Notes: a model not told the origin generated them from the sequence alone. DNA of 63,857 bases, filler included, from Reclinomonas americana ATCC 50394 (GCA_048213135.1; 15 parts of 15 records of this genome joined end to end with filler, not necessarily neighbours in it); one strand, 5' to 3'; numbered from the whole stretch's first letter, positions 15,108-59,600 are shown. Numbers and translations are program-made.

Positions 15108-15563
15108 ATGAGTTACACAGGATACCTCCACGACGCGAACTCGCTGACGCTGTCCAAGCGCATCTTCAACACAAACTTGTTGCGTCTCCTCTCTCTCCCT
15201 TCCCCCCCCCCTCTCTCACACACACTCTCTCTCCCCCACACACAGCTCCCTTCTCACCCAGCCCATGCAAAGTACCGCACAGGCCGCCTTCACGGGGTGA
15301 GCTGGCCTGCTCATTCGCAACAACCTCTCTTTGTTCGGGGGCACGCGTCTTCTCACTCTCCACACACACACACACACAGTGCGCAAGACCCCGAGGCCAG
15401 AAGTACCGCCGAGAACCGACGCAGGCGGCACATGTACACAGGTGCACCTTCCCACGCACACACATACCTTGTCACACTGTTGTCCCTGACTCGCGTGCGA
15501 ACAGAGTTCAACACCAAGTTCATCAGGGACAGGTCCATCGAGAAGGCCATGACACACAAGTGA
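15108..15563 (+). CDS. Small four-exon hypothetical protein (80 aa)
   Basis: Exons 15108-15178, 15246-15296, 15380-15441 and 15505-15563 sum to 243 nt and form one open frame ending in TGA. All introns are GT-AG. Confidence 0.6.
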   Translation: MSYTGYLHDANSLTLSKRIFNTNLLRLLSLPSPPPLSHTLSLPHTQLPSHPAHAKYRTGRLHGVSWPAHSQQPLFVRGHASSHSPHTHTHSAQDPEARSTAENRRRRHMYTGAPSHAHTYLVTLLSLTRVRTEFNTKFIRDRSIEKAMTHK

Positions 15564-15620
15564 CTGCTGCTGCCTTGCCCGCTCATGAATGTATAGTCAG
15601 TGTTACCTCCACACATCATA

Positions 15621-56600: not shown

Positions 56601-59600
56601 AGTATTGTGAGGGTGTCGTTGCATTGCACATGCGATTAGTAAACACATCCCGACTGGTTCCAACCAGCCCGAAGCGATACGGGTCGCGTGGTACGTCCGC
56701 TGCAATTGGCAACAGTGAGCGGACATGTGAGGCGCACATTTGAAGGCAGTTCCGCGCACTGTGACCAACGCACCTGGTTGAAGACCAACGCCATTGTGTC
56801 GCACCAAACGGTCTGCAAAGTGTTCAGTTCGGTGTCGTGGAGCGAGGTCTGCGCGCAATAGTGATAGTCGAGAAAGGGAGAAGAAAGTATGAACTGCACG
56901 GTTCCACACGCACAGCCTGAGCTCTGTAGAACGACAACACACCGTGCAACGCATCCAGCGCGACGTCAGCATCCTCGCCTTGAGCACCCACCTCGACCAG
57001 CTGGTCATCGTCCGAGTCATCGTCGCCGGCGCCATCGACAACACGAGGTGCACCTCTAGCGTCCTCGCGTCGCGCCGCGTGCTCACTTTCCAGTCGTCGA
57101 CGCTCCGCGAGACGATTGCTCATCCGAACGAGAGCGGGCGCTGCAGCGTCGATTCCCGCATCTCGAGCAGGAGGAGCCACGTCGCCGGGAGCGTTTGGCA
57201 CAGCGCGAGCGCGGGCGAGGTCACTCAGCTCCGGGGCGCCGATCACCGGTTGCCCACGGCCTTCGCGAAATTCAGCACTCGACGTACTGATTCGAGCACC
57301 ATTCGGCTGCAAGACGACGCGCAGCACCATCTTGCCACAATTACTCACGACATGGAGAGCAACGTCACTGTGCCACAGGAACAGGATCAGCACGCGCAAA
57401 GAACACGTTCACCAAACACACTATTTCGAATCCGTGCGCGCAACTGATGGACATGATTTTGTTCCGCCTCCTCAACATAGTCCACACTGATCAAGCTGCA
57501 AAAGGGCGTCAACATGCTGTAGACAGTGCATGGGATTCCGCAAGCACCCACATACGTATACGAATCCCAACGCAACAAGTCAAACCCATCTCGAACGAAA
57601 AGGCCGGGTCCGGCCCCTGAGCGGCCTTCTCGGATATAACGGCTGTCCGCGTTGCTTTTCAACAGCCGCCACAGCACATCGTTGACACCGGGAGGCAAAA
57701 GATGCTCAGGGTCCTCGTCGTCCCACCGGTGTGACTCTGCAAGATGCGCGAGGAGGCTCTGCTCCACAGGGCCACAGCCAGCGGCAACTGTCGTTCTCGC
57801 ATGACGAAAATGGCGTCCAACAAGGAAGCACAGGTCGCAGAAATGCACATATGGATGGTCAGGTTTGCCGTCACTCGCAGCCTTTGCCTGGACGACGCAG
57901 GCTGCCATTGAGCGGAGAGTGCGATGGGAAACAATACAGAGTATTCACACACCTTTCGGTCACCACTGTGAGAAAAGTTTAACACCTTCACAGTTCGCAT
58001 CACGAACTCAGCACGAGGGTGTGCATGGACATCTGCTGCTGCTGCTGCTGCTCCTCCTCCTGGTGCTGGCTCTGGATCGTGCACAGCCATGTCGATTCCT
58101 GGAGCCAGAGAGAGAGAGAGAGAGTGAACACCAAAGAGGGAGTGCATGTCTATAGTAGACAAAGCAACGCACCGTCACGCAGAATTCGCAGCTCATCGCC
58201 AATGAGGCGGAATATAGCTGCGTTGTTGTTGATGTGGCGGTGAGGGCCATCTTCAACGGAGTTGTTCAGCGAAGCAGCATTCCAGATAAACCCGGATTCC
58301 CCGCGCATAGCGGGTGGCAACGACGGAATCGTTCCAACCACAACAGTGACGCTATTGGGTGACTTGTTGGCCGTAATCGGGTCCACAGAGTAATTTACGA
58401 GGTACGTATGCTCGTCGTCTGCCGTCACTAGCCCTCGTTGCCACATCGAGTCGTACGTGTGGCCGTCGGAGACGTCACAGACAAGGTGGTCAACAATGCC
58501 TGGCCGATGCACTGCTCGCCACATCTCTGAATCTCGCACTCCAGGCACAATCGACTCCGCAACCTCGATGTCTGCATCGAACTACGCGCGTTGTGTTCAG
58601 AACCCACACAGCTGGTGGACATGATGCACAACGGAGTGACTCACCTCCGCAGCAAATCGCTGTTCATTTGCACACTTTCGTGTGTAGTTTAACGCCTCTC
58701 GCAACTCACGTCGCAACAGCATCAACTGAAAAATGACTGCAGTTGGCGTGTAAAACAGAATCACCTTTGGTTTCGGATTGGCGACCGCAGGATTGCCACT
58801 GTGCGTGCACGTGTACAAAAGCGAACGCAGTAAGAACCGGATCACGGATGCGAGACACGGGCGCGGAGGGGTTGGAACGCAACGAGAACAACTTCTCTCC
58901 ACAAAAACACTCTCCCGGACGGCCACCTTCGTACATGGGAGCGAGCGATGCGTTCTTGTACGCTTTCGCCACATGATTGTCGTTCACAGTGGCGGCTTCG
59001 GTGATGATGAACACGGCTTCTGGGCAGCATGGGGCGGGATGCCGGGGACACACGACACAGATATACACCGGAGGCATCAGCGGCTTGGCGTTTGTCATCA
59101 TCCCTGAATATCAGAGCGCATGAATCAGCCGATCAACAGAGCAGCAACTGCAGCAGTAAGCAAATGCACCTTGAAAGCTGGTATTGCAGTCAAGCTTCGG
59201 CACGCCGTCGGGTCTGGCAAAAGCGTTCAAAAGGGTAACAGAGTCGTACGCGCCCATCTCAGGCTCGCGGTGGTTGAAATATGTGGCCCGGAGCAGGGCG
59301 ATCACAAAGTCTGCACGATGGAGCACTTGTGCGGCTGGCTGGCCCCGCTCCAACTCGCGAACGTACTCCTCGTGGCGATGTCGGACTCCCTTGAGCGTGG
59401 TCTCCACTGTGCTCAGCAGCACGTGAGCGAACACGAGCACCAGGTGACAACACGACATGACAGCAGTACGCAACATTTGTGTTTCGTCAGCCGAAAGTAT
59501 TCATGAGGTACGTTGCGTTCGCGATCCAAAATTCGAAACGCATCATCCTGCTGCACGAGTGGTGGACCGAAAGGGGATACCAATCCGCGCCTTCGAGGTC

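Follow-up and report, generated by a model that had tools for sequence, protein, structure and literature searches.

Within a 63,857-nucleotide (nt) stretch of DNA from the assembly of Reclinomonas americana ATCC 50394 (GCA_048213135.1), which is referred to here at its full length as the window, roughly half of the checkable introns start with GTT(G/A)CG instead of GT(G/A)CG, an arrangement that is very rare in humans. The checked introns belong to two genes, one for the ribosome quality control protein NEMF and one for a MAPK-like kinase, and comprise 20 U2-type introns with junctions fixed by homology. T is present at the third intron position (+3) in 11 of these 20 donors. A first-pass annotation of this DNA had claimed, from the letters of the sequence, that donors with one extra T form a recurrent class across seven genes of the window; the gene models document the class in two genes and bear out that the GTT-type donor is a real and major class of 5' splice site. 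The reading that we favor, with a confidence that is evenly balanced, is that a single U1 footprint would be used in a register shifted by one base, and that the shifted form would serve as a donor class co-dominant with the ordinary one. Such a shifted, co-dominant class should be taken as a well-supported lead from two genes, not as a genome-wide result.

The 16 donors proposed in the first-pass annotation all carry the letters claimed for them: 12 are GTTGCGT, and the others are GTTGCGC (43753), GTTACGT (35936), GTTACGC (40389), and GTTGAGT (20607). Six of the 16 (37375, 35936, 40389, 39918, 38981, and 38838) are fixed by the homology-based gene models and none is contradicted; five +3T donors beyond that list (36132, 35200, 36420, 40545, and 38445) emerged from the same models. 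The +3T donors, hereafter class B, have the hexamers GTTGCG (six donors), GTTACG (two), and GTTACA, GTTCGT, and GTTTGC (one each). The ordinary donors, hereafter class A (n = 9), are GTGCGT (two) and GTGCGC, GTGCTG, GTGAGA, GTGAGC, GTGTGT, GTATGT, and GTCTGC (one each), in keeping with the earlier claim that ordinary donors occur in the same genes (GTGCGT, GTGAGN, GTATGT, and GTGTGT were seen). All 20 introns are bounded by GT...AG, and intron lengths span 55 to 750 nt; judged by their boundaries and by the gene models, the checked introns are genuine U2-type GT-AG introns of an intron-rich eukaryote. Their 3' ends are GCAG (14 introns), ACAG (three), GTAG (two), and CCAG (one). The acceptors of the checked introns (e.g., 37279, 35827, and 40323, minus strand) have a (T/C)GCAG-like end without a pyrimidine tract, and some introns contain yeast-like TACTAAC or CTAAC branch words.

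The donors, their division into two classes, and the position statistics that separate the classes are direct observations. G at +5 occurs in 8/9 class-A donors vs 2/11 class-B donors (p = 0.0055), as had been claimed for the atypical class, and when the ambiguous donors (e.g., 36420) are left out to give a robust set of 17 the contrast is 6/7 vs 1/10 (p = 0.0037). The test for G at +6 instead of +5 in +3T donors was set beforehand, and its outcome agrees with the expectation: +6G is found in 1/9 class-A donors vs 8/11 class-B donors (p = 0.0098; robust set, 1/7 vs 8/10, p = 0.015). C at +5 is confined to class B (0/9 vs 9/11, p = 0.0003; robust set, 0/7 vs 9/10, p = 0.0004). A further contrast, which the first-pass annotation had not foreseen, concerns the last exon base: -1G is present in 9/9 class-A donors vs 3/11 class-B donors (p = 0.0014; robust set, 7/7 vs 2/10, p = 0.0023). 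The consensus of class A is G|GU(G/A)(C/A/U)G(U/C), with -1G obligatory, and that of class B is N|GUU(G/A)CG(U/C). Positions +3 to +7 of class B correspond to positions +2 to +6 of class A, such that the atypical motif is the ordinary motif displaced by one base, as originally described, and both classes fit the heptamer G[G/U]URCGU with the cut before the first GU.

The NEMF gene (34500..37401, minus strand) was modeled from its start codon at 37401 to approximately 34500 and contains 11 GT-AG introns, with Pfam hits to NFACT-R and NFACT_N. Removal of the 11 introns gives an open frame of 697 amino acids, of which residues 5-674 align at 42-46% identity to homologs. Junctions were placed using a purpose-written protein-to-DNA spliced aligner that requires GT...AG alone, applied with 18 homologs; with this aligner, unconserved residues can be absorbed into an intron at no cost. 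Apart from intron 3, donor support ranges from 18/18 to 3/18 alignments. The best supported of the class-B donors is that of intron 8 (35936-35827; 110 nt; GTTACGT at 35930..35936), which was chosen in all 18 alignments. The donor of intron 10 (67 nt; GTTGCGT at 35194..35200) was chosen in 14/18 alignments, with three alternative acceptors, and a gap between tblastn high-scoring segment pairs extends from 35198 to 35118. Intron 7 (36132-36076; 57 nt; GTTGCGC at 36126..36132) was recovered in 7/18 alignments and belongs to the open model. For intron 1 (37375-37279; 97 nt, phase 2; GTTGCGT at 37369..37375), support comes from the 3/18 alignments that reach the 9-codon exon 1, all of which chose this donor, and 37375 is the sole GT that preserves N-terminal colinearity. 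The donor of intron 5 (GTTCGTC at 36414..36420) is ambiguous, being chosen in 5/18 alignments, with neighboring GTs picked in others, and the frame is open with it. The other NEMF introns are at 37067-37003 (18/18 alignments), 36578-36508 (15/18), and 34839-34769 (18/18), together with those that begin at donors 35556 (14/18), 36264 (ambiguous), and, for intron 3, 36797 (GTGCGT used; ambiguous).

The MAPK-like (CMGC) kinase gene (38060..40591, minus strand) comprises 11 exons that extend from subdomain III to the stop codon, with a Pfam Pkinase hit at 40148-40579; its exons were read from three frames by the order of kinase subdomains. When nine GT-AG introns and one AT-AC intron are removed, an open 299-amino-acid frame that ends in a stop codon is obtained, and this aligns by BLASTP to protein P0256 (33% identity across query residues 2-284), ungapped at each of the 10 junctions. 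A representative search with a kinase exon returned mostly distant multi-domain kinases, and a useful colinear alignment was obtained from P0256 alone; spliced alignment to P0256 recovered 5/10 kinase junctions and placed three others differently. Four class-B introns are supported jointly by the frame, by BLASTP, and by the spliced alignment to P0256: those with donors GTTACAG at 40539..40545 (55 nt), GTTACGC at 40383..40389 (67 nt, phase 2), GTTGCGT at 38975..38981 (63 nt, phase 1), and GTTTGCA at 38439..38445 (60 nt, phase 1). The GA-rich intron of 317 nt with donor GTTGCGT at 38832..38838 is ungapped vs P0256, in a protein region that is less conserved. A micro-exon of 14 nt (39919..39932), encoding part of the activation segment, is preceded by a GCAG acceptor and followed by a GTTGCGT donor (39912..39918) that opens a GA-rich intron of 750 nt; the junction at donor 39918 is the sole one that restores the sequence from the activation loop to the APE-like segment without a gap. 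Tandem Repeats Finder identified no repeats in 38500-40000.

One of the ten introns of the kinase gene is a U12-type AT-AC intron of 70 nt (39054..39123, minus strand), which starts with ATATCCTT, terminates in AC, and carries a branch-like TCCTTGAC (39075-39068) 14 nt from its 3' end. It accounts for the single match to RTATCCTY in the window. Removal of this intron is required for an open kinase frame, and the junction is ungapped vs P0256; thus, the organism keeps a minor spliceosome. The possibility that class-B introns are themselves U12-type (a /RTATCCTT donor and, 10-15 nt from the 3' end, a TCCTTRAC branch) was rejected, since no class-B donor has these signals.

The abundance and strandedness of the motif were assessed over the window as a whole. 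GTTGCGT occurs 36 times vs 11.83 ± 3.34 expected from 100 dinucleotide-preserving shuffles (maximum 22; 0/100 reach 36), an approximately 3-fold excess. Between 34177 and 63857 it occurs 17 times on the minus strand and once on the plus strand. Over the 13 eukaryotic pieces of the window, oriented by Pfam hits where present and otherwise by a donor-blind codon model, there are 27 sense vs 8 antisense occurrences, a strand bias that is second only to that of the GT microsatellite among GT-heptamers. For GTT[AG]CGT the counts are 29 sense vs 8 antisense, and for the ordinary equivalent with -1G, GGT[AG]CGT, 16 vs 11. Donor-blind gene finders of three kinds were dropped as donor evidence, and the codon-usage dynamic programming model, which was noisy and had most NEMF introns wrong, was used for piece orientation alone; a periodic Markov model with expectation maximization on splice position weight matrices ran away to approximately 350 introns on GT microsatellites, and a gene finder trained on acceptors alone recovered 4 to 6 of the 11 modeled NEMF introns across iterations, with 4 finally. 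Among 80 NEMF loci of other eukaryotes kept from metagenomes (best identity 72%, over one exon), none shows GTTGCGT enrichment, the maximum being 0.4 per kilobase (kb) from two hits vs 35 hits in 53.8 kb here. Judged by these loci, GTTGCGT enrichment is not a general eukaryotic feature. No public sequencing runs were listed for 34177-37691.

The remaining 10 of the 16 proposed donors lie in genes without recognizable homologs. They are compatible with frame-preserving GT-AG introns, but so are 4619/6767 GT sites (68%), and a test by frame bridging is therefore powerless. On the plus strand, the candidate donors are GTTGCGT at 15179..15185, for which a frame-preserving acceptor exists under that same test, and GTTGCGT at 30378..30384 and 32452..32458. 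On the minus strand, they are GTTGCGT at 15763..15769, 16568..16574, 19583..19589, 21226..21232, and 58877..58883, GTTGCGC at 43747..43753, and GTTGAGT at 20601..20607. All of these are candidates by motif; those at 16574 and 19589 are also picked by the donor-blind codon model, and at 16574 a 65-nt intron ending in CACAG would join frames of 157 and 285 codons.

These 10 sites bear on the possibility that the GTT motif is an artefact, that is, a word with a coding or regulatory role, the 5' terminus of an introner-like repeat, or a set of U12-type sites, with the true donors at neighboring GTs. In favor of this, homology offers no check on 10/16 proposed donors, open frames are common enough that 68% of GT sites are spliceable in frame, and a sense GTTGCGT at 12685 apparently falls within an intron of a kinase-RING finger gene instead of at an intron start. 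Against this, the positions of eleven +3T donors follow from two colinear gene models, each independent of the other, the motif is unlike the U12 donor (the true U12 intron starts with ATATCCTT), and 0/80 metagenome NEMF loci are enriched. Among these 27 sense occurrences of GTTGCGT, conservation does not extend past +8, which indicates that these sites are not copies of one element; the absence of extended similarity and the range of intron lengths also led us to reject introner copies as the source of class B. We regard an artefact of this kind as very improbable.

The mechanism proposed for the two classes is that the U1 small nuclear ribonucleoprotein would dock in one way on the heptamer G[G/U]URCGU, and that the first catalytic step would cut before whichever GU the heptamer offers. 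At class-B donors, relative to the cut, the U1 helix would be displaced downstream by one base from its usual position, and +1G would replace -1G in the helix, rendering -1G dispensable. Both this register and the single footprint are inferences, as would be any change in U1.

Several results weigh against the shifted register. In a duplex calculation on RNA alone, with pseudouridine treated as U, class A on the standard U1 5' end gave the canonical fold for 9/9 donors (-4.0 to -9.0 kcal/mol), whereas class B gave a uniformly shifted fold for 0/11 donors, with 8/11 between +0.7 and -2.1 kcal/mol. With pairing this weak, a shifted reading requires either an altered U1 or substantial assistance from proteins or U6. 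In favor of shifting, 7/11 class-B donors become uniformly shifted by +1 (-3.1 to -6.7 kcal/mol) on a hypothetical U1 with a U-to-G change (Mastigamoeba-type), on which one is bulged, two are canonical, and one is out of register. Against it, the bulged duplex is the best fold of donor 35936 with either version of U1. G is scarce before GTT[AG]CG on the antisense strand too (1/23), and thus the missing -1G could be partly compositional. The gene models also leave room for doubt: the checked set is drawn from two genes, and three NEMF donors are ambiguous (intron 3, 36420, and 36264), with the donor GTCGCC at 36807 being preferred for intron 3 in 14/18 alignments vs 1 for the adopted GTGCGT at 36797. 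With 36807 as the alternative donor, the contrasts between classes are weaker but kept (-1G, 8/9 vs 3/11, p = 0.0098). The orientation of 8/13 pieces comes from the codon model and not from homology. Finally, for the 8/11 class-B introns that have a G directly after the acceptor, mRNA alone cannot separate |GUU...AG| from G|UU...GG|; the three class-B introns that lack this G have donors 40389, 38981, and 38445.

The G after the acceptor is itself unevenly distributed, being found in 8/11 class-B vs 2/9 class-A introns (raw counts; e.g., at 37278, 35826, and 39168). The G at the mRNA junction is on the upstream exon side in class A, and on the downstream exon side in these 8/11 class-B introns. 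The G that follows class-B acceptors may be a trace of one-base intron sliding. Intron boundaries of the form UU...GG were considered and rejected; with the boundaries moved rightward by one base, 3/11 class-B introns would have to end in GC or GA, and GU-AG therefore stays the uniform reading.

The bulged register places the usual U1 pairing at +1G/+2U with an extra U at +3 (or +2) looped out, as in the human "bulge +2/+3" class. The class-B motif can indeed be written as class A plus one U, donor 35936 favors the bulged duplex whichever U1 is supplied, and this type of pairing has been shown experimentally in humans (Tan et al., 2016, PMC4856993). A looped-out U would, however, leave C9 of U1 free to use -1G, yet -1G falls from 9/9 in class A to 3/11 in class B, and this loss favors shifting over bulging. 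Moreover, when +5C is able to pair, the uniformly shifted fold is preferred by seven of the 11 class-B donors, and in humans bulge +2/+3 sites number 68 (54 curated) of 201,541 (PMC4856993). Bulging is thus accorded a small share of our belief, and it appears improbable as the general explanation of class B.

The weak pairing of class B with the standard U1 5' end, together with the strong preference for C at class-B +5 (9/11), would also be expected if the small nuclear RNAs (snRNAs) are adapted, that is, if U1 or two U1 paralogs, perhaps with an altered U6 ACAGAGA box, are complementary, in register with the cut, to GUURCGU. An adapted or variant U1/U6 system was the inference of the first-pass annotation, which is partly supported: the donor class and its +6G shift are real, whereas the data are accounted for at least as well by one U1 footprint used in two registers. 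A precedent exists in Entamoeba and Mastigamoeba, where U1 has co-evolved (Roy and Bowser, bioRxiv 10.1101/2022.06.08.495308). However, the two classes are co-dominant inside single genes, and one perfectly matched U1 cannot therefore fit both; in addition, Thecamonas and Mamiellales are described in the same source as retaining a standard U1 despite +4 C. We consider snRNAs adapted in register with the cut to be unlikely, although somewhat less so than bulging. A modified U1 may nevertheless be present and is a live possibility in combination with the shifted register, and our guess, prompted by the strong class-B C and by analogy with Mastigamoeba, is that U1 here may carry a G at the position that normally faces +4.

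Shifted and bulged U1 pairing is known for rare human donors (PMC4856993), as the first-pass annotation had noted. Both registers were described by Roca & Krainer (2009) and Roca et al. (2012), as summarized in PMC4856993, and were proven with suppressor U1s. Noncanonical registers between human 5' splice sites and U1 total 2.1% of 201,541 sites after curation, and the authors drop +5G sites from the noncanonical list as canonically pairing (Tan et al., 2016, PMC4856993). The human shifted sites resemble class B in that the cut is made at the normal GU, the U1-pairing block lies one base deeper in the intron, and +5G is lacking, which matches the split between classes A and B (PMC4856993). Unlike class B, which accounts for 11/20 checked donors beside ordinary donors in the same genes, the human shifted sites are rare; in addition, the human register was proven by suppressor U1s (PMC4856993), whereas here it would follow from sequence statistics alone.

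Atypical donors that have become the norm of a genome are described for Entamoeba, where GUUUGU is paired with U1 AACAAAC, and for Mastigamoeba balamuthi, where GUGCGC is paired with U1 ACGUAC (Roy and Bowser, bioRxiv 10.1101/2022.06.08.495308). The donors of the window share with these an atypical, GC-flavored donor with C in place of the usual A, and Entamoeba donors normally have U at +3 (bioRxiv 10.1101/2022.06.08.495308); according to the duplex calculation, the donors here would pair well after one base change in U1 of the Mastigamoeba type. They differ in that the Entamoeba and Mastigamoeba donors have normal length and register (with +5 G in Entamoeba) and are near-universal in their genomes (bioRxiv 10.1101/2022.06.08.495308). 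A single near-universal atypical consensus of this kind was not found here, as the 20 donors divide 11 and 9 in the same genes. Entamoeba is also intron-poor (bioRxiv 10.1101/2022.06.08.495308), whereas here two length classes coexist in intron-dense genes (11 introns in a 2.9-kb gene). Mamiellales have GYGCGY donors and Thecamonas trahens has +4C donors, both with standard U1 (bioRxiv 10.1101/2022.06.08.495308); the class-A donors GTGCGT and GTGCGC represent the same motif as that of Mamiellales, and no extra-U class is described for Mamiellales or Thecamonas in the accessible part of that source. Our literature search, which lay outside subscription papers and supplements, found among the papers listed no report of a GTTGCGT-type donor, nor of a one-base-longer class beside an ordinary one in an intron-dense genome; this silence is weak evidence. 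The novelty would consist in a register that is known from rare human sites being in co-dominant use, conditional on the motif not being described already for the lineage.

A more far-reaching proposal is that the one-base shifted register is regular and co-dominant lineage-wide. Docking by U1 would then be decoupled from the selection of the cut across the genome of an organism that is rich in introns and keeps a U12 spliceosome. The pairing regions of U1 and U6 may have co-evolved with this arrangement, and one-base intron sliding may be how class B arose. We advance this wider proposal tentatively and hold it to be possible, if rather doubtful. Most work on how the exact cut is chosen after U1 has marked a site has dealt with rare human exceptions and engineered reporters. 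If the proposal is true, this organism would be a natural, genome-scale test bed for a U1-pairing block that is out of step with the cut, and its U1, U6, U5, and Prp8 would reveal which changes are needed, or not needed, for shifted sites. Gene finders trained on +5G donors would mis-model many genes of such a lineage.

The window consists of 15 pieces separated by 14 linkers, each with a 12-base stop word for all frames that is flanked on both sides by 44 N (at 2808-2907, 9974-10073, 14198-14297, and 11 further positions). Many pieces have CT, GA, or GT microsatellites at their ends, as in a fragmented short-read assembly. Pieces 1-2 (1-9973) have a GC content of approximately 0.63 and a bacterial character, with type I restriction-modification genes that include an HsdR-like helicase/type I restriction enzyme R subunit (2991-6377) and a type I restriction specificity (S) subunit (8610-9973). 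These two pieces could be contaminant, prey, symbiont, or mis-binned DNA, and they have no relation to the intron finding. The other 13 pieces (10074-63857) are eukaryotic, with a GC content of 0.52-0.59, short introns, and many CT/GA/GT microsatellites. No close relative of the eukaryotic part was found in a collection of 5.8 billion proteins or among the 80 metagenome NEMF loci; full-length NEMF identity is at most 46%, with Euglena and Mortierella equally close.

No tRNA genes and no Rfam families at gathering scores were detected in the window, and no snRNA genes (U1, U6, and others) were detected in it, whether at these gathering scores or at E ≤ 1. One Rfam match below threshold, to RF02400 (Leishmania Hsp83 3' untranslated region), extends over 20006-20358 (plus strand) and across a linker, at 48.7 bits vs a gathering score of 90; it was most likely caused by CT/GA low-complexity sequence. 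The Pfam scan covered 437 stop-free open reading frames (148, 139, and 150) plus 10 more, and its yield was limited to TPR, two kinases, a RING finger, mitochondrial S18, NEMF, and a weak EGF match, most of the reading frames being without a domain. One of these genes, encoding a kinase-RING finger protein (12400-13910, plus strand), is represented by a partial model only, in which the donor GTGAGT at 13201 was chosen in 13/30 alignments and GTTGGT at 12660 is a possible donor. Within each piece, the recognizable genes and nearly all GTTGCGT sites share one strand, and in the six successive pieces at 34177-63857 (approximately 30 kb) this is the minus strand (17:1 for GTTGCGT), a layout like that of same-strand gene clusters, provided that the pieces are in their true order and orientation.

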